From IMG/VR virus record IMGVR_UViG_3300020205_000903, positions 1 through 25,152 of that record: DNA of 25,152 bases. One strand, given 5' to 3'. The position numbers and the translations under genes are program-made. This DNA comes from a virus. Taxonomy: Duplodnaviria > Caudoviricetes. Positions 14,963 through 25,152 of this stretch are shown piece by piece (the stretch's first letter is position 1; every line of letters starts with the position of its first letter). The notes under the pieces are model-generated. The model saw nothing but the letters and a program-made list of their open reading frames with translations. It was not told the origin of the DNA and searched no databases.

Positions 14963-16816
14963 TTATGCCAAACGGCGATCTGCGGCCCACTCATCAAGGT
15001 TGATGACCTGTCGCTTTTCGGCATCTGCTCGGGTGAGGAATTCATTATGTACAAACTTTCCGCCATACTCACCAAACTGGCAGATCTCTCTTGCTCTAAT
15101 CTCACAGAACCAGAGGGCCATAACAAGGTCTGTCTTGTTCTTAGTCTCTGGCGACCATGTAACTAACTGATCAATAAGTAAGCGGATGCCTTCGTGTCGA
15201 TCTGAAGGTAAGTGCATCAAGTTATCTCGATGGTGCTTACCATTGGATTCAACGCTACCAAATAGGGTAGCCATTGCAGCGACACCAAATCCAACATCCC
15301 ACTTATTTCTAGATGTAGTGTGTTCCCTAAGAAGCACACCACGACTTGCTAACCATTGCCGTAAATTCTCATCCTGTGTCAGATAACCCTGAAAGGCGTT
15401 TCGTTCAACCATCCATTCCGATGGTTTGTACTTTTCCGTAAATGTAGTGATGAGATCACGGATGGCTTGCGGTGACGGTTTAGTTATAGTTGCAGCATCG
15501 AGGATATATCTTTTCTTTCTCCTACGATCTACAGCTACGACAACTGCCGCCGTATCACCAACGATTGCTGGGTCAAGCCCGGCGATGATGGTGAGACCTT
15601 CTACTGTCTCGGGATGTCCGGGGTTGCCCGGAACGATTGGCCCGATCATTCTCATTCTGTCGATAGAACCTTTAACGCAAGTCATGTTGAAGGTTGAGTC
15701 TTCATCAACATCTGCTTGCTGGTAAACCATCGACCAAGTCTTTGGGTCTAATGCACTTCTACGCATGGATAGATACTTGCCATCCCAGCGTGGGTATAGA
15801 CCGTCTTCGTCTGCCTCTTCATCGCTACCCTGCCAAGGGCGGTCTGATTTAGGCCAAAGTGTTTTCCAGTCCTTCTGATCTTCTGCAAACTCTAGGACTG
15901 CTGGCATCGCCAGATATGTCCAAGGTGATTTACCTGTTGGGTATCTCTCACCGTTACGGAGTTCTCTATAGAGGTCAATGGAATCTACTCGAGTTCCAAG
16001 GACTAAAAGCTTGCCGGTAGGCCCGAGTCGAGTTAGGACTTCCTGTTGAATCCATCGAATCTGTTTTTCGTATTCGTGAGAGTTCGACATAGTCACACAG
16101 TCGTCTAGGATAATCAGGTCTGCTCTCGCACCGTATACCTGTCCTCCGATACCGATTGCTTGAATCGTAGGATCCTTCTGGTCTGAGTCACGCAGTTCGT
16201 CTCCGAGGTAGACTTGCGTGGCTTGCCATGTGGCTGACTTAGACTTGAAACCTGAGCCAGCAGCGTAAGCTAGTTGTAGCTTCTGCCACGATGGGTGAGT
16301 CAAACGCTGTTTAATAGCGTAGATAAATTCTGTTGCCTTCTGCTGTGACTTCGAGACAATCATGATACGGATGTTGGGATCCATGCAGATCCGATATACC
16401 GGATAGTCAATCGAGGTAGTCATGGACTTGGCGTGTTCTGGGGGCACATTGACCAGCACATACTGTGGTCGACCCTTTTCATATTGCATCGAGTCATGCA
16501 TCCACTCAGGGTCATTACCTTCAAGAAGGTTGATGATATTCATCTGATGTGGGAATGTGTCTGCTTCTAGATACTCCTTGCGGAAAGTACGGAAATCCAT
16601 CTCAAGGGATTCCTCAGACTGGATACGGCCATGCTTTGATCTAGCGGCACGAACCTTGTCTACTGTCTCCTTGAATTCTTTATCCGTGGAACGGTAGTAA
16701 TCCCAAAGCTTTGCTGATCTGCCGACCTGCCTCATGGCATCTTCGACTGTGCAGCCTTCAGTAATCAACCGGATTACTTTTGCTTTGATCTTAGCGGTCT
16801 CTTCTTGCTTACTCAT
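14963..16816 (-). CDS. terL: Terminase large subunit with an N-terminal HTH-like extension (start revised to ATG 16816, MSKQEE)
   Basis: Walker A variant VPPEHAKS, Walker B LIILDD, coupling motif GTR, RNase H-like nuclease motifs GLDPA and DLVMALW; GAGGAG SD. Confidence 0.92.
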   Translation of the reverse strand: MSKQEETAKIKAKVIRLITEGCTVEDAMRQVGRSAKLWDYYRSTDKEFKETVDKVRAARSKHGRIQSEESLEMDFRTFRKEYLEADTFPHQMNIINLLEGNDPEWMHDSMQYEKGRPQYVLVNVPPEHAKSMTTSIDYPVYRICMDPNIRIMIVSKSQQKATEFIYAIKQRLTHPSWQKLQLAYAAGSGFKSKSATWQATQVYLGDELRDSDQKDPTIQAIGIGGQVYGARADLIILDDCVTMSNSHEYEKQIRWIQQEVLTRLGPTGKLLVLGTRVDSIDLYRELRNGERYPTGKSPWTYLAMPAVLEFAEDQKDWKTLWPKSDRPWQGSDEEADEDGLYPRWDGKYLSMRRSALDPKTWSMVYQQADVDEDSTFNMTCVKGSIDRMRMIGPIVPGNPGHPETVEGLTIIAGLDPAIVGDTAAVVVAVDRRRKKRYILDAATITKPSPQAIRDLITTFTEKYKPSEWMVERNAFQGYLTQDENLRQWLASRGVLLREHTTSRNKWDVGFGVAAMATLFGSVESNGKHHRDNLMHLPSDRHEGIRLLIDQLVTWSPETKNKTDLVMALWFCEIRAREICQFGEYGGKFVHNEFLTRADAEKRQVINLDEWAADRRLA

Positions 16817-16825
16817 ATCTCTCCT

Positions 16826-16842
16826 CGCCAGCTTCGCTGGCG
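16826..16842 (-). promoter_or_regulatory. Perfect hairpin CGCCAGC-GAA-GCTGGCG abutting the terL Shine-Dalgarno
   Basis: 7-bp inverted repeat read directly; it ends where the AGGAG SD begins. Confidence 0.5.
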
Positions 16843-17048
16843 TGGTCGCCAAAGATTTTTCATTGGGTTTAGGGGTTCTGAAAAAGAACAGACTACTGGG
16901 CATTTACTAGGGGCTTTTAGATCGCCTTCGTTCGCTAGGGCTCACTCCGGCTCCCTAGAGCCGGGTAGTCGTCTAATTACTTTAGCAAGTAATTATCCTC
17001 CTACTATATATAAGCCGGGATAAATAGGTTTTATCCCACACTATGCCC

Positions 17049-17064
17049 TGTGATTTGTATCACA
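17049..17064. promoter_or_regulatory. Crp/GlxR-family binding site
   Basis: TGTGA-TTTGTA-TCACA is an exact match to TGTGA-N6-TCACA and lies in the divergent intergenic region. Confidence 0.65.
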
Positions 17065-17212
17065 TACTAGCCATTGTGTGTAAAAGTCCTGTTCAGAGCC
17101 TATTTCGCAGCTTAGATCCTATCAAAAATTTTTATTTGGGTACATATATACAGGGGCCCCAGCCCTATAAAGCACTCGGGTCAATTTAGCCCCCCTGCGT
17201 GTCTGACCCCCC

Positions 17213-17240
17213 TATGCCGATAACAGACATTATGTAAAGT
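17213..17240 (+). other. dif-like XerC/XerD recombination site
   Basis: TATGCCGATAA-CAGACA-TTATGTAAAGT: 11-6-11 layout with inner ATAA/TTAT; the right arm matches the E. coli XerD arm TTATGTTAAAT at 9 of 11 positions. Confidence 0.75.
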
Positions 17241-17333
17241 AGCTTTTACGGCGTGTCGGGGAGACTCGAGGCAGGGCAGACCCTCGGCAACTAGGCCTCT
17301 TTCAATGTTCGCCGTCTAAGTAATCGCCTAATA

Positions 17334-17467
17334 CTTGGGGCATTACTTGGCAGGGCTTGGCAGGTAATCGAGGGGGCAAGGCTTGGGGAATCGGCAGGGA
17401 ATCGGGCAGACCTTGGCAGACCTCGAGGCCTTGGGGTCTTGGGTCTTGGGTCTTGGCCTTGGGTCTT
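17334..17467 (+). repeat. G-rich short-repeat array (CTTGG and GGCAG units; GGGTCTT heptamer x4)
   Basis: GGGTCTT at 17434, 17441, 17448 and 17461; about ten CTTGG and several GGCAG copies, all on one strand. Confidence 0.75.
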
Positions 17468-17548
17468 GAATCTCTGGTATCTCTGAAAGCCTTGTAAATC
17501 ACTCACTTTCGAGAGGGATAAATACCGGCAACACGATCTCGGGAATGG

Positions 17549-17577
17549 TTGAACTCTTGCAGCTCTGGCCTTACCCT
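17549..17577 (+). promoter_or_regulatory. Putative housekeeping-sigma early promoter
   Basis: TTGAAC-17 bp-TACCCT; the predicted start (~17583) coincides with the beginning of the leader hairpin at 17582-17606. Confidence 0.45.
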
Positions 17578-17581
17578 TAGC

Positions 17582-17619
17582 GAGTGGGGGAATCTCTTCC
17601 CCACTCATTACCTACAGAA
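17582..17619 (+). promoter_or_regulatory. Leader cassette 1: hairpin plus ACCTACAGAA start-associated motif
   Basis: GAGTGGGG/CCCCACTC stem, then ACCTACAGAA (17610-17619), GAGG and ATG 17631. Confidence 0.65.
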
Positions 17620-17630
17620 TGAGGCTATAG

Positions 17631-18110
17631 ATGGACATCAAGACCGATTTACCTACTCACCTCGAGGCCAAGAATGCCCTCGATTCTCTTCTCAATTCAT
17701 TCCAAGATTCTCGAATGCTTGAAGAGGTAGCAATAAAGACCGCCACGATTGGAATCTCCGAGAGTGTGCAGATTCGAGACTATGCACTCGGGGCGATTGG
17801 AATCTGTTTAGATTCCGAGGATTCTCTTGCATTCATTACGGCGATTCAATTACTCGGGCAAGATTCGGCAGGACTCGAGGCGATTCGAGGGGCGTATCTT
17901 TACGAGTTGGGGCAGATTGAAGAGGCCAACAAGGCACTCGATAAGGCTCTCGAGTTAGTGAATGGCCACTCTCTCTCCTTGCTTCTCCGCCGAGTTATGT
18001 CGGCAGGTTGGCCACCTGCTTCATTCGCTTCAATGCGTAATCAGTTGCACGGCAAGGTCGAGGCAGGTCTGAAAGACCTCGAAGGGGTGTGTGTGAATGA
18101 AAGTAAGTAA
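17631..18110 (+). CDS. DUF4192-like (TPR-like helical) protein, 159 aa
   Basis: QIRDYALG...YELGQIEEANKALDKAL...HSLSLLLRRVMSAGWPP resembles the C-terminal pattern of actinobacterial DUF4192. Confidence 0.6.
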   Translation: MDIKTDLPTHLEAKNALDSLLNSFQDSRMLEEVAIKTATIGISESVQIRDYALGAIGICLDSEDSLAFITAIQLLGQDSAGLEAIRGAYLYELGQIEEANKALDKALELVNGHSLSLLLRRVMSAGWPPASFASMRNQLHGKVEAGLKDLEGVCVNESK

Positions 18111-18237
18111 TCCGTTTATTACTCTCCTCGATTCTGAAAGTGGCGAGGTCTTAGTCTTCGCCCCTCTTTCCAAGACTCGAATGAATGCCTTAGTGAAGGC
18201 ATACTCGAAGGCAGGTATCGAGGCCGTAATCGCTTAG
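18097..18237 (+). CDS. Hypothetical microprotein, 46 aa (not in ORF track)
   Basis: AAGGGGTG SD; MKVSNPFITLLDSESGEVLVFAPLSKTRMNALVKAYSKAGIEAVIA; ends just before a hairpin. Confidence 0.65.
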   Translation: MKVSNPFITLLDSESGEVLVFAPLSKTRMNALVKAYSKAGIEAVIA

Positions 18238-18249
18238 GCCGTAAAGTGG

Positions 18250-18280
18250 GGGCAAGGCTTTCGGGTCTTGCCCTTGCTTT
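18250..18280 (+). terminator. UUCG-loop hairpin, probable intrinsic terminator or processing site
   Basis: GGGCAAGGCT-TTCG-GGTCTTGCCC followed by TTGCTTT. Confidence 0.6.
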
Positions 18281-18320
18281 ATGTCTAAGGGAATCCCCTA
18301 GACATTCACCACCTACAGAA
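18281..18320 (+). promoter_or_regulatory. Leader cassette 2: hairpin plus ACCTACAGAA
   Basis: ATGTCTAAGGG-AAT-CCCCTAGACAT stem, ACCTACAGAA (18311-18320), AGG and ATG 18330. Confidence 0.65.
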
Positions 18321-18329
18321 AGGCAATAA

Positions 18330-18662
18330 ATGAACACAGAAACCAAGACCCCGAAGAGCGTGGGGTCGTTAGCGTGGAGTGCAGATTCTGCCCCCACTTA
18401 TTGCGAGTCAATCGAATCCCTTTATTCTTGGTCTAGTAATTACCAAGACTTTAGGCCGTTTAGAATGTTCTTAGATCTTGTTGGACATTCTGCCGAGAAT
18501 CTCGGCTCACCTCTTGCAGATTGGAAAGACCCAAGCGAGTCAATGGGTTATGTCGAGTTGGGTAAATTGGGCGAGGCCTTGGCCGAGTGGTCTAATCGCC
18601 CTGAAGATTGTGCAGCTTTTGTCTCCGAGATTCTCGAGGTAGAGAGTGAGTTCGGTCTATGA
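18330..18662 (+). CDS. Hypothetical acidic protein, 110 aa
   Basis: ORF track; GAAAGG SD; ATGA overlap with the next gene. Confidence 0.75.
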   Translation: MNTETKTPKSVGSLAWSADSAPTYCESIESLYSWSSNYQDFRPFRMFLDLVGHSAENLGSPLADWKDPSESMGYVELGKLGEALAEWSNRPEDCAAFVSEILEVESEFGL

Positions 18663-18826
18663 AACTCAATAAAAGAGGCGAGATAGTTCTCGCCGTATCG
18701 CTTGGAATAAATGCTCTATTAGTTGCCGGACTTTTACTGTGGGGAATTGACCACTTGAACTGGGTCGGCGATAGATACTGCTTCAAGAGTTCTATCGAGT
18801 GCTACTTTCCAGAAGAAGGGCGGTAA
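18659..18826 (+). CDS. Single-TM membrane microprotein, 55 aa, with a C-terminal Cys pair (not in ORF track)
   Basis: MKLNKRGEIVLAVSLGINALLVAGLLLWGIDHLNWVGDRYCFKSSIECYFPEEGR; ATGA coupling. Confidence 0.7.
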   Translation: MKLNKRGEIVLAVSLGINALLVAGLLLWGIDHLNWVGDRYCFKSSIECYFPEEGR

Positions 18827-18830
18827 TTAG

Positions 18831-18977
18831 ATGCCTGTTATGTGTGAAGAATGCAAATGCTCTAATTGGTTATGCAACAACTGTGGCGACTACTCGAATG
18901 ATTGCGGTTGCGAGTGCTGTAAATGCGAATGCCAAAAGCGTTCAAGCGGTAAAGACATCAGCGAGGGAGATAAATAA
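18831..18977 (+). CDS. Metallothionein-like Cys-rich microprotein, 48 aa with 11 Cys (not in ORF track)
   Basis: MPVMCEECKCSNWLCNNCGDYSNDCGCECCKCECQKRSSGKDISEGDK; AAGGGCGG SD; abuts both neighbours. Confidence 0.65.
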   Translation: MPVMCEECKCSNWLCNNCGDYSNDCGCECCKCECQKRSSGKDISEGDK

Positions 18978-19088
18978 ATGCCAACGATTCCAACCAAGGC
19001 TAAGTGCCCCGAGTGTTCTCGGGTCTTTGACCTGCTAGATGATAACGATTCACAAGAGTGGGCTTATGGCCACGATTGCGAGGTGTAA
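18978..19088 (+). CDS. CxxC...HxC zinc-finger microprotein, 36 aa (not in ORF track)
   Basis: MPTIPTKAKCPECSRVFDLLDDNDSQEWAYGHDCEV; GAGGGAG SD. Confidence 0.7.
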   Translation: MPTIPTKAKCPECSRVFDLLDDNDSQEWAYGHDCEV

Positions 19089-19090
19089 TT

Positions 19091-19189
19091 GTGGTGATGA
19101 CTATTCACGCAGGTGATTGCTCAACCGAGTGCCCGATTTGTGTGGCGAATTGTGATTGCAATAAGTGCAGAGAGGGGGTGATTCAATGA
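19091..19189 (+). CDS. Cys-rich microprotein, 32 aa with 6 Cys and 1 His (not in ORF track)
   Basis: GAGGTG SD, GTG start (or ATG 19097): MVMTIHAGDCSTECPICVANCDCNKCREGVIQ; ATGA overlap with the next gene. Confidence 0.6.
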   Translation: MVMTIHAGDCSTECPICVANCDCNKCREGVIQ

Positions 19190-19353
19190 CAGTTCATAAG
19201 ACTTGGGTCGTAATTTATTCAAGCGACCCACTCGCTAACCACGATCTAGCAACAAGGCTCGAAGGCCTTGAGTGGTGGATTACCGATAGACATAACGCTG
19301 AAGAAAGCAAGACAGCGACCAAGATGATTGACCTTACGCAGCTAAAAGATTAG
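19186..19353 (+). CDS. Hypothetical protein, 55 aa (start revised to ATG 19186)
   Basis: GAGGGGGTG SD; ATGA coupling. Confidence 0.7.
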   Translation: MTVHKTWVVIYSSDPLANHDLATRLEGLEWWITDRHNAEESKTATKMIDLTQLKD

Positions 19354-19359
19354 CGACCT

Positions 19360-19423
19360 ATAGGGCAGGGGATTTATTCCCTGCCTTATGGGGTGTTCAT
19401 CTGAACATCAACAACCTACGGAA
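19360..19423 (+). promoter_or_regulatory. Leader cassette 3: two hairpins plus ACCTACGGAA
   Basis: ATAGGGCAGGGGA-TTTA-TTCCCTGCCTTAT, then GGTGTTCA/TGAACATC, then ACCTACGGAA (19414-19423) and ATG 19434. Confidence 0.6.
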
Positions 19424-19433
19424 AGATAGATAA

Positions 19434-19850
19434 ATGAAAGAGTTCGAGATACTAACAAGCGAAGAATGGGAGTATTCAAGAAGTGTTACCTTTATTATTG
19501 AAGGCGAGACTTATCAACTTGATACTTTCATAGGTAAGCACAGTTGTGAGAATCAACTATGGAAAGACGGCAAGAAGATTGAAGTTCCCGAGTCTTGGAT
19601 TGACGAAGGCGAAGAGTCTTGGGACTTTATGTGTGAGATTGACTACGCTGGATACGATTTAGAAGTCAAGCGTTATCTACTTGCTAATAAAAAAGAAGAG
19701 AACGAAAAGAGCTTCGACTGGCTATGCACTAAGGTCTTAGAGATTCTGCCTAATGCAACCTTTGGCCAAGATAATGACGGCCAAGTAATTATCTACACCG
19801 ATCTAACAGAAGATGAGACTGGCACACTCAAGAAGTTAGAGGTGGAGTAA
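19434..19850 (+). CDS. Hypothetical acidic protein, 138 aa
   Basis: ORF track; TAATG coupling with the next gene. Confidence 0.75.
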   Translation: MKEFEILTSEEWEYSRSVTFIIEGETYQLDTFIGKHSCENQLWKDGKKIEVPESWIDEGEESWDFMCEIDYAGYDLEVKRYLLANKKEENEKSFDWLCTKVLEILPNATFGQDNDGQVIIYTDLTEDETGTLKKLEVE

Positions 19851-20074
19851 TGACTACTCAAGACCCAATGTTCGCCCCTTACTACTCAACCGACTTGGAC
19901 ATTCCGATTGTCCAAATCTATGCGAAGAATAAACATCACGCTGAGGCAATTATCAACGAGTTCATAGATAAAATCGCTGAGATTATGTCGGACAAGATTC
20001 GCTGGAATGAATGTGATTGGCGGATTGAAGAGAATGTCTATGACGAAACCAAGGGTGAATGGGTGGTCTCATAA
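19850..20074 (+). CDS. Hypothetical protein, 74 aa
   Basis: ORF track; GAGGTGGAG SD; TAATG coupling at both ends. Confidence 0.75.
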   Translation: MTTQDPMFAPYYSTDLDIPIVQIYAKNKHHAEAIINEFIDKIAEIMSDKIRWNECDWRIEENVYDETKGEWVVS

Positions 20075-20253
20075 TGAGATACACAATTACCTTGGAATTC
20101 ATAACAGATAGAGAACTTGATAGAAACGAGTTCGATACACTCACCGATTCTTTACTCTTACAGATTGAAGAACCTGTCAATCGTGCTGGTAATGATGAGG
20201 AATACACAACCCGAGAAGGCAAGATTGCAGGGTGGTTCAATGAAAAACTCTGA
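20074..20253 (+). CDS. Hypothetical protein, 59 aa (start revised to ATG 20074)
   Basis: TAATG coupling; GGGTGG SD-like sequence. Confidence 0.7.
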   Translation: MRYTITLEFITDRELDRNEFDTLTDSLLLQIEEPVNRAGNDEEYTTREGKIAGWFNEKL

Positions 20254-20482
20254 GAAGGAGTATTGCGATAGGTGTAAGGTTGAAGAGAATCACCTATCGG
20301 ACATTGAATGCTTGGCTTACGAGAGTGAGTCAATCTCGTGGGGTGAGTTAGCAGAACTAACTCATAAGACTCAGGTAATGAGGTTTGGATTCTGTATGTG
20401 TGAAGATAATGAGGGCAACAAGAACCCTTACTCAGACTGTCCAGAACCAAGAGTCCGAGTGCTAAGAGAGGTGGAGTTATGA
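20240..20482 (+). CDS. Cys/His-containing hypothetical protein, 80 aa (start revised to ATG 20240)
   Basis: MKNSEKEYCDRCKVEENH...C...H...FCMCED...PYSDCP; AGGGTGG SD. Confidence 0.7.
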   Translation: MKNSEKEYCDRCKVEENHLSDIECLAYESESISWGELAELTHKTQVMRFGFCMCEDNEGNKNPYSDCPEPRVRVLREVEL

Positions 20483-20616
20483 CTACTGGCCTAGCCTGTG
20501 TTCCCTCTGAAGAGTGGGTATGGACTGACTGCGACATCAAGGGTCACGAAGAGGGTTGCTTTATGGCAACCTGCCCTGCGTGTGGCACTACCGATAGAGA
20601 TTGCGAGTATAAGTGA
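20479..20616 (+). CDS. Cys-rich microprotein, 45 aa with 6 Cys and 1 His (not in ORF track)
   Basis: MTTGLACVPSEEWVWTDCDIKGHEEGCFMATCPACGTTDRDCEYK; GAGGTGGAG SD; ATGA and TGATG overlaps. Confidence 0.7.
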   Translation: MTTGLACVPSEEWVWTDCDIKGHEEGCFMATCPACGTTDRDCEYK

Positions 20617-20759
20617 TGAGAGATTATGAACTTATCGAGGCTATCGAGAAGGTGGTCGCTACTGATGGCGAAGAAATGACTGACGGCGAGTGCTTGGATC
20701 AAGTAATCGAGTTAGTCAATGAATACAAGAGCTTCAATTTCGAGAGTAAGGGGGTCTAA
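20616..20759 (+). CDS. Acidic microprotein, 47 aa (not in ORF track)
   Basis: MRDYELIEAIEKVVATDGEEMTDGECLDQVIELVNEYKSFNFESKGV; TGATG coupling. Confidence 0.7.
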   Translation: MRDYELIEAIEKVVATDGEEMTDGECLDQVIELVNEYKSFNFESKGV

Positions 20760-20888
20760 TTGGTAGGCTTTGTCCTAGTCATACTCTTATTCTTCACTCT
20801 CCCTGTAGGGATAGCAGAGAATCAACCGCTACTAATAGCGATACCGATACTGGGGCTGGTAACAGCCCTACTGTGGAAGGAGAAGTAA
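20760..20888 (+). CDS. Two-TM membrane microprotein, 42 aa, TTG start (not in ORF track)
   Basis: AAGGGGG SD; MVGFVLVILLFFTLPVGIAENQPLLIAIPILGLVTALLWKEK; TAATG coupling to the Rpf-like gene. Confidence 0.6.
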   Translation: MVGFVLVILLFFTLPVGIAENQPLLIAIPILGLVTALLWKEK

Positions 20889-21292
20889 TGCATCACCGAT
20901 TCATAATCGGACTGGTGGCTTTGGGGTTGGCGATTTCGCTGACCCCAAACGCCCCAATCCACCTCGAAGTAAAACCTGTAGAGGTAATCCCAAAAGTCGT
21001 GGAGATTCCGGATTTATCTTTGGATCAACTACCTTTATCGTGGCAAAAATTGGCTATGTGTGAATCCTCTGGTCGAGTCAATGCTGTCAGCGGCAAACGC
21101 AAACAGTTCCAAGGGCTATTCCAGATCGAGTATCCCCGGACTTGGGTTGCACATGGTGGCAGCAGCGGCAAACCACCCAAGGATTCCACCATACTTGAGC
21201 AGTTCTATGTAGCTCTTCACATCTATGTTGATCGAGGCTCTAAGCCTTGGCCTTACTGTGGCAAATTCCTAAAGGAAGACTACGGCAAGTAA
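20888..21292 (+). CDS. Resuscitation-promoting factor (Rpf)-like lytic transglycosylase with an N-terminal signal/anchor
   Basis: WQKLAMCESSG...GLFQI...TWVAHGG...EQ...WPYC follows the Rpf domain pattern with the catalytic Glu and both Cys; hydrophobic N-terminus; AAGGAG SD before ATG 20888. Confidence 0.85.
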   Translation: MHHRFIIGLVALGLAISLTPNAPIHLEVKPVEVIPKVVEIPDLSLDQLPLSWQKLAMCESSGRVNAVSGKRKQFQGLFQIEYPRTWVAHGGSSGKPPKDSTILEQFYVALHIYVDRGSKPWPYCGKFLKEDYGK

Positions 21293-21293
21293 C

Positions 21294-21321
21294 TTGACAA
21301 TGCCGACAGCGGCATTAAACT
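21294..21321 (+). promoter_or_regulatory. Near-consensus sigma70-type promoter with a palindromic spacer
   Basis: TTGACA-16 bp-TAAACT; the spacer carries the inverted repeat AATGCCG-ACAG-CGGCATT (21299-21316). Confidence 0.65.
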
Positions 21322-21327
21322 AAAACC

Positions 21328-21372
21328 ACTAAGACCCCTCCGGACTGTAGGCCGTGAGGGGCTTAGTCTTTT
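21328..21372 (+). ncRNA. Putative ~45-nt hairpin small RNA that is also the bidirectional terminator between the converging operons
   Basis: ACTAAG-A-CCCCTC-CGG-[ACTGTAGG]-CCG-T-GAGGGG-CTTAGT-CTTTT; begins 7 nt after the -10 box; the loop is complementary to CCTACAG. Confidence 0.55.
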
Positions 21373-21555
21373 CTAACCTCTTGGATTTTCTACTGAGTAG
21401 AAACCAGTAGCCTTGAACACCGTAGGTGTTGGACTCCATACTCGAGTCATCATCAAGCCACAGTCACACTTAGGTGGTGCTTCTTCTTCTGTCATCTTGC
21501 GTTCGATCTCTACTTTGACAGCACAGTTAGTGCAACTGTATTCATATGTTGCCAT
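21373..21555 (-). CDS. FmdB-family zinc-ribbon protein
   Basis: MATYEYSCTNC...PKCDCG..MTRVWS...FKATGFYS pattern. Confidence 0.85.
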   Translation of the reverse strand: MATYEYSCTNCAVKVEIERKMTEEEAPPKCDCGLMMTRVWSPTPTVFKATGFYSVENPRG

Positions 21556-22216
21556 CTGTATCCCTTATCTGTTCACCAATAAACTTTGTATATGCAGGTG
21601 GTATTGATTCCTTTAATGCTTGCCACTTCAGCCAGTCAATCCCCATTGCATCTCTTGCCTCTTCAATACTTGTGGCAACACGACCACCATACACATACTT
21701 ACCTGTGCTTTTATCTACACCTTGAGGCTGGTCTCCCATTGCACCATACACACCTACTGGTTTGCCCTGTTCTTTGTGATTACAGGGCAAGGTATGTAAC
21801 TCCACATTACTCTCGAAAATTCTGTGTCGTCTAACCTTCAGCCCAAATGATGATCCGCATAGGGTTATGCCATCCATTGGTGCATCGGGAACATTCTCCA
21901 TAACATAGATACCACCCCACTCAATCAATGCTTCTCGTGTTGCAGCTACTAGATCTGGCTTTGATGTCTCGTTACCTTGTGCCTTCATCAAGTGCCTTGC
22001 TCTGGTAAATACCTGACAAGGTGGGCTGGCATGGATAACATCAAACCGAGACAGGAACTCTTTGTCCTTTAGTATCTCCATGGCATCTCCTGTTATCTGC
22101 TCGAAGGGATACTCAGCACGATGTTTTATATCAACGCCGGTTACTTCATAACCTGCTTGGTGATACCCCATTGAGGCACCACCTCCACCACAGAACAAGT
22201 CCAGTAATTTAGCCAT
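21542..22216 (-). CDS. C5 DNA cytosine methyltransferase (compact phage type)
   Basis: Motif I LDLFCGGGG, motif IV SPPCQ, motif VI ENV, motif VIII RRHR, motif X-like ESIPP. Confidence 0.88.
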   Translation of the reverse strand: MAKLLDLFCGGGGASMGYHQAGYEVTGVDIKHRAEYPFEQITGDAMEILKDKEFLSRFDVIHASPPCQVFTRARHLMKAQGNETSKPDLVAATREALIEWGGIYVMENVPDAPMDGITLCGSSFGLKVRRHRIFESNVELHTLPCNHKEQGKPVGVYGAMGDQPQGVDKSTGKYVYGGRVATSIEEARDAMGIDWLKWQALKESIPPAYTKFIGEQIRDTDGNI

Positions 22217-22692
22217 TAGTTATTGTAACTCCCTCTGAATTTTCTTAGGTTCTCTTCTGGTACGCAATAGATCTCTGGTCTCTTCCAGTCAGGTTTGTCC
22301 AACCACTCCGGGTTCTTAGCTTCTGCACCCATGATCCAACCAATCAGCTCGTAGTTAGGCATACCACCTCTAACCAATACAAACTTCACATCATCCTTTG
22401 CATCAGGTCTAACAAGTAACCTGCCTTGCTCGTGCTTCGTATACTTAACATCAATGTTCGGTTCAATATCTACACCACCTTGACCGAAGGCACCGCCCCA
22501 GTAGACACCAAGATACTTAGCTACTGCTATCTCAGCACCGGCACCATCAACATCAAGAAGGATTCTCTGCCATGCATCCATGTCCTGTAGTCCACGCATC
22601 TGTTGGTTCTTCATTGTAGATACATAGCGTTCAATCGCTGTGTTAGCAGCGAGAACTACTTCGTATCTCTCAAGTATTATCTTTAGACCCAA
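22216..22692 (-). CDS. Hypothetical protein, possible PD-(D/E)xK nuclease-like fold
   Basis: GAGAEIAVAKYL...VD...IDVK pattern; coupled to neighbouring genes. Confidence 0.55.
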   Translation of the reverse strand: MGLKIILERYEVVLAANTAIERYVSTMKNQQMRGLQDMDAWQRILLDVDGAGAEIAVAKYLGVYWGGAFGQGGVDIEPNIDVKYTKHEQGRLLVRPDAKDDVKFVLVRGGMPNYELIGWIMGAEAKNPEWLDKPDWKRPEIYCVPEENLRKFRGSYNN

Positions 22693-23339
22693 GGGGTTGG
22701 CCCTCCTAAATGATCGATGATCTTTCTTAGTGAGCCTTGTATCTTTCTATCTACTGTTGAATCACTTATGCCCATCTCTTCTGCTATCTCGGATAGAGTC
22801 ATTGGGTTATTGGAATACCTATTGCGTAACATCACCTGCTCATCTGCCTGTAGCAGATCTATTGCAGATCTAATATCAATTACTACAGCCAAGATATTGC
22901 CACCCTCACTTGGAACTGATGGCTTGCGTGGGGTGCCATCATCTACCTTGTCAACCATTACTGCACCGTATGAATCAAACTCAAATGCAACTGGCAACAT
23001 CTTGGCTATCGTTATCGTGTCGTAGAAGAACTCATCGCCGGTTGAATAGCCCAGCTTTGCGGCCTTCTCTTTGCGAGAATACTTCTCAATAGTCCTGCGG
23101 AATCGTGCCATGATCCGTCTTGCTACCCACTTAGTCTCATCCTTGCTTACCTCATAAGCCTCATCTAACATTTTCGCTAAGTGAGGTCGCTTAAGAACAT
23201 AGACTCGAAGCTCTTGAATGAGATCTTCTTTCTCTACATAGCCAGCAAATCTGCGATGGATGTGTGATGCAGATATATGCAACAGATCTTCGAGATGTTC
23301 TGCGGATCTATCTAAGCGATCATAGTCAGCAGAACTCAC
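22683..23339 (-). CDS. Phage sigma-70-like factor (region 4 HTH)
   Basis: EDLIQE region-2-like segment; C-terminal MTLSEIAEEMGISDSTVDRKIQGSLRKI HTH; GTGA coupling. Confidence 0.75.
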   Translation of the reverse strand: MSSADYDRLDRSAEHLEDLLHISASHIHRRFAGYVEKEDLIQELRVYVLKRPHLAKMLDEAYEVSKDETKWVARRIMARFRRTIEKYSRKEKAAKLGYSTGDEFFYDTITIAKMLPVAFEFDSYGAVMVDKVDDGTPRKPSVPSEGGNILAVVIDIRSAIDLLQADEQVMLRNRYSNNPMTLSEIAEEMGISDSTVDRKIQGSLRKIIDHLGGPTPWV

Positions 23340-23437
23340 TCATCATCCTCGAGTTCTACTATCGCATCCATTACAAACTTGGCAACGAATGCCATCAATG
23401 TAATTACAAGAATTGCTAATAAAAAAAATTTCCTCAC
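23336..23437 (-). CDS. Single-TM microprotein, 33 aa (not in ORF track)
   Basis: MRKFFLLAILVITLMAFVAKFVMDAIVELEDDE; GTGA overlaps at both ends exactly bridge the gap. Confidence 0.7.
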   Translation of the reverse strand: MRKFFLLAILVITLMAFVAKFVMDAIVELEDDE

Positions 23438-23874
23438 TTGTTCTCCGGCCATGTGCCACGAGTAACCATCATGGCAATGATGCAATAGTTAGCCAGATCC
23501 TTGAATGAATCCTCAATGGATTCGTGCTGTGGTGCATGACCAGATGCTAGTAAGTTCTTAAGTCTTTCAAACTTGTCACCCATACGAACCATCAACCCAT
23601 TGATAGGGCCACCGTATGCATTGTTGATATTGCCCGGGCCGTAGTCTCTTTGCTTAGAGATCAGTAGATTGCCAAGCTCATCGATAACATCCCATGAGTC
23701 AGCAACGAACTGATTCATCACCGGGTCTGCGGTAGTTGAACTACTATCTCGAGGGCCAAAGGCTGACTTGGGTCTGGCTTTAGGCTTAGGATTTTTAGGC
23801 CCAAGCTTTCCAGTAAGTCTTTCAAACTCTGCATCGTCATTGGATCTACGGATTCCATCCTCATACACGCTCAT
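23434..23874 (-). CDS. DUF1599 / nucleotide-modification-associated domain 1 protein
   Basis: KQRDYGPGNI...RMGDKFERLKNL...ESIEDSFKDLANYCII pattern. Confidence 0.8.
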   Translation of the reverse strand: MSVYEDGIRRSNDDAEFERLTGKLGPKNPKPKARPKSAFGPRDSSSTTADPVMNQFVADSWDVIDELGNLLISKQRDYGPGNINNAYGGPINGLMVRMGDKFERLKNLLASGHAPQHESIEDSFKDLANYCIIAMMVTRGTWPENK

Positions 23875-24511
23875 CTATTCCTAATCTCCTTCGTAGCCCA
23901 TCTAAACCCTCATCTAATACTATAGAGTTTACATCACTTCCGAGTGGAAGAGGTATCAACTCTGCGTGTTCGACCTCTTGTAATACTTTCTCTGCAAGTT
24001 CCATTCCCGGATTGCTTCCATCTTTTTTATCATCGTTATCGGCCAAGACAAGGACTCTTCGATAGCCACCAAATAATCTATTGAAGTGTGGTCGCCAAGC
24101 TTTAACACCCGGCACTCCAACTGAAGGCAAGAGTTGACTTGCAATGACTGCATCCAACTCTCCCTCGCAAATTGCAATGGTATCCGAAGGCTTTTGTAGA
24201 TCAACTGCGTTGAACAATCTTGCTGGTTGATGCATTGGTGCCATGTATCTAGGCCCCGGAAGTTCATCGATCCTTCGGAACTTGAAACCTGCAACGCCAT
24301 TGACGACTCTGTATGGTATGGATAACCATCCAATGAATTGGACATGGCTCGGATCACAGTCGACTGGTACGCTTCCCAGCAGATGCTCGCTTGCCAGCTC
24401 CTGACTGAACCCCCGACCTTTTAGGTAAGAGACTGTCTCCTCGTTTATCTTTTTGTGATATGTCGTAGCCAAATCGTTTAGCAATGTCAGACGCTCTATC
24501 GAAAGCAACAC
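23861..24511 (-). CDS. DNA primase, catalytic TOPRIM part
   Basis: YLKGRG, IPY, KFRR, ICEGELDA, GVPGV and LADND motifs. Confidence 0.88.
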   Translation of the reverse strand: MLLSIERLTLLNDLATTYHKKINEETVSYLKGRGFSQELASEHLLGSVPVDCDPSHVQFIGWLSIPYRVVNGVAGFKFRRIDELPGPRYMAPMHQPARLFNAVDLQKPSDTIAICEGELDAVIASQLLPSVGVPGVKAWRPHFNRLFGGYRRVLVLADNDDKKDGSNPGMELAEKVLQEVEHAELIPLPLGSDVNSIVLDEGLDGLRRRLGIDERV

Positions 24512-24734
24512 GAAAATCCACCCCTTCTTTCCACATTAGTAATGAGTATGCATCTCCACCTATGCCACAGGTGTGGCAGAAGTAGAGTCCTGCTTTCTCT
24601 CCGTCTGTACTCATAACAGCAGACCTTCGAGTGTCGTTATGAAAGCAACATCTAACAGGCTTTGAATAACCTTCTCTTACTTCACCGCCATAGTGTTCGA
24701 CCACAGCCTTGAGAAGCTCTGGGTCGGCGGCCAT
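24354..24734 (-). CDS. DNA primase zinc-binding (CHC2) part
   Basis: CCFHND...S...YFCHTCGIGGDAYSLLMWKEGVDF; overlaps the TOPRIM ORF by 158 nt. Confidence 0.88.
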   Translation of the reverse strand: MAADPELLKAVVEHYGGEVREGYSKPVRCCFHNDTRRSAVMSTDGEKAGLYFCHTCGIGGDAYSLLMWKEGVDFRVAFDRASDIAKRFGYDISQKDKRGDSLLPKRSGVQSGAGKRASAGKRTSRL

Positions 24735-24925
24735 TAGTAAGTCTTTCTTACTGGCTTCTTCTTCTGTGTTCGTTCTAACTGCTTGAGATAGGAGTTGTAT
24801 TCTTCAATACGCTTCTCCATTTTCTTCTGTTCTAACCTTGCATCGAAGGTGTAATACAAGTGTTCTAAGAAGTGATACAAAGCAACACCTGCGATTACGA
24901 TCAATACCCCTGCTACTGTTTCCAT
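24734..24925 (-). CDS. Small single-TM membrane protein, 63 aa
   Basis: GGAGG SD; hydrophobic N-terminus and basic tail; TAATG coupling. Confidence 0.75.
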   Translation of the reverse strand: METVAGVLIVIAGVALYHFLEHLYYTFDARLEQKKMEKRIEEYNSYLKQLERTQKKKPVRKTY

Positions 24926-25152
24926 TTTAATACCTCCGTAAATGTATCTAACTCCATGATTACAAACGACTTACCTATGCCATGCTGTCTACGCTTAGCA
25001 ATAACGATTGGTATCGCTGGTGTAGATTTTCTTTTCTTTATCCAGTTCTTTACTTCAATACTTGCTTCCTCTACCCATGGCCCAAGCTTGAATGACTTCT
25101 CATTCTTTGCCTCGACTACGATAAAACTTTGGATGTCCGGTGCCCATAACCA
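24913..25152 (-). CDS. C-terminal part of a Holliday junction resolvase (PD-(D/E)xK type), truncated by the window edge
   Basis: Manual translation: WLWAPDIQSFIVVEAKNEKSFKLGPWVEEA...PIVIAKRRQHGIGKSFVIMELDTFTEVLKWKQ. ExK motif and KRR pattern; replication-module context. Confidence 0.7.
   Translation of the reverse strand, partial: WLWAPDIQSFIVVEAKNEKSFKLGPWVEEASIEVKNWIKKRKSTPAIPIVIAKRRQHGIGKSFVIMELDTFTEVLKWKQ

Follow-up and report, generated by a model that had tools for sequence, protein, structure and literature searches.

In phages that use the host polymerase for their early genes, the shut-off of these genes is usually credited to proteins. Among phage RNAs that act by pairing, the c4 RNA of P1 and P7 is a trans-acting RNA whose short loop sequences pair around the ribosome-binding site and block translation in a phage-specific manner (PMC12197685). 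P22 sar, lambda OOP, and BTP1 STnc6030 likewise repress phage mRNAs by pairing, and STnc6030 leads to superinfection exclusion (PMC12197685). In cluster K phages, which are temperate and have a protein repressor, genes preceded by an intergenic gap carry a phage-specific motif, the start-associated sequence (SAS), at their SD, one copy being reversed, and whether the partner of SAS is an RNA or a protein is left open in the accounts available (PMC3203893, PMC11373665, PMC12699233).

The candidate RNA described here works like a c4 RNA, that is, by a known mode of action, and is not a c4 family member, since neither Rfam nor the type of target (early genes) places it in the c4/CI antisense RNA family of P1, P7, and P4. 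In a temperate, repressor-encoding phage, c4 RNA acts on a single antirepressor mRNA, whereas the RNAs studied here (45 to 67 nt) match three to five early leaders, carry the seed in the terminator loop in the case of the window, have no Rfam match, and come from phages in which no integrase or HTH_3 repressor was found. In contrast to sar, OOP, and STnc6030, which lie opposite a single target with long complementarity, the RNA is encoded 1.9 to 3.7 kb from its targets and has a seed of 7 nt. The layout resembles that of SAS (a motif at the SD and one reverse copy) without sequence homology: the 13-bp SAS consensus, as given in PMC3203893, is absent before the starts, where the leaders read ACCTAC[AG]GAA.

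The window, which is the whole stretch of 25,152 nt analyzed, is a 25-kb part of the ~40-kb genome of a WhiB-carrying freshwater actinophage. WhiB is encoded in 5/5 complete or near-complete relatives (40 to 48 kb), and phage integrase and HTH_3 repressor gave zero matches in the same five genomes. By terminase, the nearest cultured phages are the Planktophila phages E7 and F5 (49%) and the Streptomyces podoviruses of cluster BF (42 to 44%), so the host is likely a freshwater actinobacterium, presumably of the order Nanopelagicales. The likeness to these phages extends to gene order, WhiB, and a sigma factor (PMC10202952, PMC13097060, PMC9753666), and they are described as lysing their host (PMC10202952) or as devoid of integrase and repressor (PMC13097060). 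BLASTN against annotated phages returned a short methylase piece only, tblastn with the Rpf protein returned nothing from them, and the search for prophages in GTDB species genomes yielded two weak, unrelated matches.

The terminase, portal, and major capsid genes occupy the minus strand of the window. The early region (17631..21292, plus strand) is made up of small genes in three translationally coupled units, with a targeted leader at the head of each, and is closed by an Rpf-like transglycosylase gene (20873-21292, plus strand; stop at 21290-21292). Convergent to it runs a minus-strand replication operon encoding a zinc ribbon, a methylase, a sigma factor, and a primase, the final gene of which is the zinc-ribbon gene (21373..21555, minus strand). 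A likely early promoter, TTGAAC-17-TACCCT (17549..17577, plus strand), was read from the sequence; orthologous leaders have an NAnnnT box in the corresponding position, and the 5′ hairpin of leader 1 would mark the start of the early transcript. Several other features of this region were observed. At 17049-17064, ~150 bp before the terminase start, is a perfect TGTGA-N6-TCACA palindrome, which we take to be of the CRP/GlxR-type consensus; it is retained in most loci of the main and sister clades and also in E7/F5, and possibly places late or early transcription under host cAMP control. Short tandem GGGTCTT repeats (17433-17473) lie between a dif-like site and the early promoter, near the expected genome end. 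Gene callers overlook a 32-aa Cys-rich ORF (19091-19189), which fills the sole other apparent gap of the early region, and a conserved 42-aa membrane gene with a TTG start (20760-20888) ahead of the Rpf gene.

The putative RNA gene occupies the gap between the Rpf-like stop and the zinc-ribbon stop (minus strand, 21373-21375), and the latter abuts the U-tail of the RNA. The near-consensus promoter that the earlier note had reported here as having no ORF to drive was located where claimed: a predicted host sigma-A-type promoter, TTGACA-16-TAAACT (21294..21321, plus strand; -35 at 21294-21299, -10 at 21316-21321), with no ORF downstream of it in the gap. It is the top one of four promoter-like sites in 15000-25152 (10/12), a match that carries little weight alone because the scan yields fewer sites than shuffles do. 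The interrupted 15-bp hairpin with a U-tail, from which an RNA of ~45 nt had been predicted, was confirmed in its coordinates and fold (21328-21367; 15 pairs; -23.2 kcal/mol; z -3.3; tail CTTTTCT). The predicted product is a small RNA of 45 to 47 nt (21328..21374, plus strand), a single hairpin doubling as its own intrinsic terminator; a predicted promoter and intrinsic terminator without an ORF are as expected of a trans-acting base-pairing small RNA. Its 8-nt loop, ACTGTAGG (21344-21351), contains the seed CUGUAGG (21345..21351, plus strand), the complement of the leader motif. Matches of the CCTACAG-type 7-mer are not rare (~5 expected on both strands, 8 seen); the chance that its exact complement falls in a given 8-nt loop is ~1e-4. 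A second CTGTAGG, at 20803, was rejected, being coding sequence of the small membrane gene in which a wobble base varies. Rfam gave zero matches at E<=1 in 16800-21700 and none at gathering score in nine related loci. In one RNA run (n = 1, 6% of words, contigs without ends or strand), a contig from one relative spans the RNA element, and no discrete transcript was seen. The promoter spacer (21299-21316) is itself palindromic, AATGCCG-N4-CGGCATT, and resembles the phage's own dif-like site; many relatives retain its AGCG core, even where the -35 box is lost, and the palindrome is a possible operator timing the RNA.

The leader motifs were confirmed at the positions given in the earlier note, with CCTACAG at 17611 and 18312 and the variant CCTACGG, tolerated through a G.U pair, at 19415. 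Target 1 (17611..17617, plus strand) lies at -20 to -14 of gene 17631-18110 (159 aa, with a TPR-like hint), target 2 (18312..18318, plus strand) at -18 to -12 of gene 18330-18662 (110 aa; no result in the function search), and target 3 (19415..19421, plus strand) at -19 to -13 of gene 19434-19850 (138 aa; no family found). The 10-mer ACCTAC[AG]GAA occurs three times in the window, each time ahead of one of these starts, and within the early block a true intergenic leader is confined to the three genes that bear the motif, all other genes overlapping their neighbors. Since the actinobacterial 16S tail ends in CCUUUCU in 5/5 genomes (two of them confirmed as 16S ends), the SD of the leaders is AGAAAG(G), which the seed target abuts or overlaps; target 2 extends over the initial AG of the SD AGAAAGG. 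The earlier claim that the targets lie unpaired between a hairpin and the SD thus holds in part: they are open relative to the rest of the early transcript, ranking at the 88th to 99th percentile of its 7-mers, and are not clear of the SD. In folding predictions they are fully unpaired only 17 to 68% of the time, a weak 3-bp CCU/AGG hairpin competing with the open state. Ahead of each internal early leader (18248-18298 and 19358-19406) we observed a long GC-rich hairpin followed by a short one, structures that are kept across relatives, show no promoter by eye, and are possible processing sites or partial terminators.

To follow the element across relatives, loci were collected with the Rpf protein; the best 80 of 91 were taken, and with one incomplete locus dropped, 79 loci plus the window gave a set of 80. 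In this set (from the best 80 of 91), 22 distinct RNAs of 45 to 67 nt fall into nine types, the window RNA is identical in 16 loci, and the entire element, a -10 box followed by a hairpin RNA that ends in a terminator, closes the early region at its distal end in 80/80 loci. A TAnnnT -10 box stands 5 to 8 nt before the first hairpin in all 80 (from the best 80 of 91); this count was 67/80 at first, and the 13 type A3 loci joined it once the start of their hairpin was placed 2 nt farther downstream. A TG extension of the -10 box was found in 49/80 and a -35 box of at least 5/6 in 31/80 of these loci (best 80 of 91). In 31 loci (best 80 of 91), five different stems carry the loop ACUGUAGG without change, and the loop ACUCUAGG occurs in three loci, whose leaders read CCUAGAG. 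The stem changes in a compensatory fashion, 6/13 pairs differing on both sides in a small alignment of five rows, two of which are shifted against the rest in the outer stem. In the two-hairpin RNAs, a loop presents CUUGAUCC, and the linker contains CUCUAGG. The type A3 RNAs (L060-L079) have an additional hairpin at the 5′ end, its 8-nt loop being semi-conserved (AAUAGACA, ACUAGACA, AAUAGAAA).

Co-variation of loop and leader motif in related phages, which the earlier note had proposed to look for, was clearly positive. RNAs with the loop ACUGUAGG go with leaders carrying CCUACAG, and those with ACUCUAGG go with CCUAGAG; three of the latter (L035, L037, L045) have nearly the same scaffold as L055 and L059 and differ in the loop G/C, and all orthologous leaders follow. 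The two-hairpin RNAs go with leaders of the form CCUAG-N(3-8)-GGAUCAA, which span the SD on both sides. Insertions and deletions are tracked by the two-part RNAs as well (L005, L010, L039): a 2-nt deletion (L005, L009) is matched by the leader CCUAGUG, the loop UUGAUUCC (L010) by the leader GGAAUCAA, and the loop UCUGAUCC with the linker CUCGGU (L038, L039, L052) by the leader GGAUCAGA. In L006 and L012 the leaders fit the linker, and the loop pairs by G.U or partially only.

For the counts, leaders were called blind to the motif as gaps of at least 70 nt, with false calls retained. CCTAC[AG]G was present in 46/79 candidate unit leaders of the 31 ACUGUAGG loci and in 0/84 of the 49 other loci, and it preceded coupled genes of the A types in only 4/136 cases; GGATCAA was present in 34/50 leaders of type B1 and in 0/79 of the A types. 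The single-base table read 55/3 versus 3/46, its six misfits being upstream coding sequence or doubtful calls and no unit leaders, and its P value overstates the case because the loci are kin, so that such co-variation counts are not independent. Leader type equaled RNA type in 65 of the 67 loci with a leader motif (of 80; best 80 of 91), the leader patterns for this comparison having been written post hoc with the data already seen. In three complete genomes, 3/57, 3/59, and 2/57 genes had a seed match within 30 nt of the called start, all in early leaders, and the third early leader of the genome G003 was missed by the gene caller.

Binding was also estimated with our own simplified helix-plus-accessibility model. 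The window RNA was predicted to bind its own leaders 1, 2, and 3 at -8.3, -8.0, and -6.8 kcal/mol, versus 0, 0, and -2.4 kcal/mol for a one-base variant, and the medians for coupled genes were 0 to -2 kcal/mol. The energy matrix showed no cross-reaction between A and non-A types; the CUAGG types partly cross-reacted, and in the B2, B4, and D rows, which are related CUAGG types, the own RNA was not the top binder. An extension of the type A duplex into the SD by stem invasion was considered and rejected, as the best predicted duplex remained the 7-bp seed.

The Rpf gene sits between the targets and the RNA, and on its tree the RNA type switches 10 times (minimum, 8). L005 and L009 belong to the starred Rpf clade with the window, yet they carry another RNA type and other leaders, and linkage alone therefore does not explain the match. 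The match between RNA and leaders is kept across recombination and not inherited as one block.

The sister clade (terminase identity, 55 to 60%) also has RNAs at this place; their CU-rich loops number one or two, and they are accompanied by an extended -10-like box. Its loops CCCUUCCA, UAGUCCUUUC, UGUCCUUUCG, and ACCCUUUCC match the leaders UGGAAGGG, GAAAGGACUA, CGAAAGGACA, and GGAAAGGGU of their own genomes. Among the 21 of 41 loci that have both parts, a Watson-Crick run of at least 7 was found in 36/78 leaders versus 42/235 coupled genes, and the own RNA did better than other types in 57 leaders and worse in 20. Four sister-clade loci have a terminator only at the RNA position; in one of them, L224, the leader TGGAAGGGG is kept, and no matching loop was found. 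E7/F5 carry GACAGGAG ahead of genes on both strands and showed no complementary loop and no dif-like site, and a short motif search did not find the system in FlowerPower.

A conserved single-stranded seed complementary to distant initiation regions, with compensatory change, is the signature of a trans-acting sRNA, and the element is very probably a phage small-RNA gene whose product pairs in trans with the early leaders. The plus-strand RNA with a seed directed at all three early unit leaders, as the earlier note had it, is borne out by the co-variation, the kept promoter, and the compensatory stem. Co-variation alone does not prove base pairing, and the motif could instead be a protein site, either a DNA operator or an RNA site, CCUACAG, displayed by the loop of the terminator that serves the replication operon on the minus strand, with the co-variation recording a shift in protein specificity. 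The hairpin is predicted to fold equally well on the minus strand, where the zinc-ribbon stop abuts it. Against this stand the plus-strand promoter in 80/80 loci (best 80 of 91), the fact that the other 15 loci sharing the window RNA do not conserve its U-run on the minus strand, and the two-hairpin types (B), which finish in a cUUCGg terminator on the plus strand; owing to the last two points, the plus strand is likely the working strand. The two target halves are spaced 3 to 8 nt apart, leader pairing admits bulges and G.U pairs as RNA duplexes do, and the motifs differ so strongly between types that equally dissimilar proteins would be required. A protein site is accordingly quite improbable, and the minus-strand protein decoy, which the earlier note had kept as its alternative, is disfavored by the conserved promoter and the U-run that is not kept. 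The position between convergent genes, the stable fold on both strands, and the sister-clade loci with a terminator alone would also suit a mere bidirectional terminator, its match to the leaders being due to chance or shared ancestry. The loop, however, is fixed while stems vary, its changes are tracked by two to five leaders in many lineages, and the promoter is conserved; this explanation, largely refuted by the co-variation, has the slightest chance of all. Nor does pairing by itself settle the sign of the effect: the RNA might activate or stabilize the leaders by opening the CCU/AGG hairpin over the SD or by shielding a processed 5′ end. That 3-bp hairpin can join CCU to AGG of the SD in the window, and the SDs of targeted leaders are weaker (-5.6 to -7.9) than those of most coupled genes, but the hairpin is marginal and absent from many leaders, and the duplex covers the SD core in B1-B5 and the sister clade. 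Activation is thus very unlikely, and repression is favored because the duplex covers the SD in most types (the two-part types and the sister clade).

As to what repression would serve, we lean, on balance, toward delayed early-gene shut-off in lytic growth by a translation block. A lytic setting agrees with the five complete relatives, in which integrase and HTH_3 gave no match, and with the nearest cultured phages described above. The host sigma-A RNA polymerase would transcribe the RNA, whose loop would pair with CCUAC(A/G)G at the SD and exclude the 30S subunit, and the whole unit would fall silent because the downstream genes are coupled by stop-start overlaps. A delay would arise because the RNA gene lies ~3.7 kb behind the early promoter and the RNA must accumulate. 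In T7, the early genome end enters first. With the same order of entry here, the RNA gene would arrive after its targets and act as a timer. FlowerPower has its genome ends between the terminase and oppositely read small genes, and 253-bp terminal repeats are described for it (PMC9753666). As a side effect, an infected cell may block later phages of the same seed type. Some observations weigh against such a shut-off. The seed is 7 nt long, and seven pairs in an 8-nt loop are sterically tight; the own RNA is not always the best binder (B2, B4, and D rows); the cultured relatives E7/F5 do without the RNA, and the L224 leader lacks a matching loop; the timing is inferred; and a dif-like site, for which a purely lytic phage has no obvious need, is found in 31/34 main-clade loci.

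This site (17216..17243) lies between the terminase and the early genes and was recognized by its match, with three mismatches, to a single-copy chromosomal 25-mer in 4/301 actinobacterial genomes; its arms are presumably the XerC and XerD arms. It occurs in 31/34 main-clade loci that span the gap and in 0/31 other loci (some contigs were fetched twice), and its arms are fixed around at least seven different spacers in either orientation. The earlier note had fitted the RNA to a dif-based, repressor-less carrier state. The main rival to lytic shut-off, with which it is compatible and not mutually exclusive, builds on that idea: through the same RNA and pairing, the main job would be immunity, silencing early genes in a repressor-less carrier, as an episome or dif-integrated, and excluding superinfecting phages that share its seed type, so that seed types would be immunity groups as for P1 and P7. 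In favor of this, close relatives have nine RNA types, which have been repeatedly exchanged; the host-type promoter would work in a carrier; most main-clade loci have the dif-like site; no protein repressor was found; and c4 provides a precedent (PMC12197685). On the other side, the RNA occurs without the dif-like site in three main-clade loci (L017, L018, L057) and in the whole sister clade and is therefore independent of it. Host DNA was joined at dif in 0/17 metagenome hits, phage DNA lying on both sides in 17/17 (one over only 39 nt; a small sample), and no prophage was found in the GTDB species genomes. The site looks functional, and the variation of its spacer and orientation fits dimer resolution better than integration. 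Moreover, one seed is kept at Rpf identities down to 60%, which is slow for an arms race, and cross-reaction is predicted among the CUAGG types. A link of the RNA with a dif-based carrier state was therefore not upheld, no integrase or repressor having been found either, and immunity as the main job is doubtful, while lytic shut-off remains the reading that we prefer. Rather doubtful too, and a shade more so, is a broader proposal in which the RNA is the RNA-only master switch for all early units, the exchangeable seed defines immunity groups with dif-resolved episomes as carriers, and the same principle explains SAS.

The cluster K genomes bear on that last point. In Adephagia, a hairpin predicted for the mRNA strand between genes 92 and 93 (L263 33655-33712) holds the sole reverse SAS in its loop; this gap region is conserved in 182 cluster K records, and SgtBeansprout also has the reverse SAS in the loop. 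Co-variation was negative there: the exact complement is missing in 3/4 further phages, and the loop has drifted in Hammy, Phrank, and Bryler, with Hammy and Bryler retaining 15 and 14 canonical SAS despite the drift. The link between the window RNA and the cluster K SAS is a weak lead. No description of this RNA was met in the literature, in which subscription journals were thinly covered, and the words "small RNA" and "antisense" do not occur in the text of PMC10202952 as available. A set of 8,495 candidate structured RNAs from IMG/VR is given in PMC10690425; three supplement files of that paper do not contain the seed strings, and the hairpin may be included unnamed in its alignment archives.

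The natural compensatory changes across many lineages point to a 45-nt RNA that would control the whole early regulon of abundant lake actinophages. Their hosts belong to the Actinobacteria, to our knowledge a phylum without Hfq. The natural cognate and noncognate RNA-leader pairs make up a ready test set and might double as a minimal orthogonal translation switch in actinobacteria. For the cluster K SAS, whose role is stated as unknown in the part of PMC11373665 available, the RNA offers an idea, though co-variation in that cluster was negative. If true, the broader proposal would mean an RNA-only early program, without a protein repressor, in a widespread group of freshwater actinophages.
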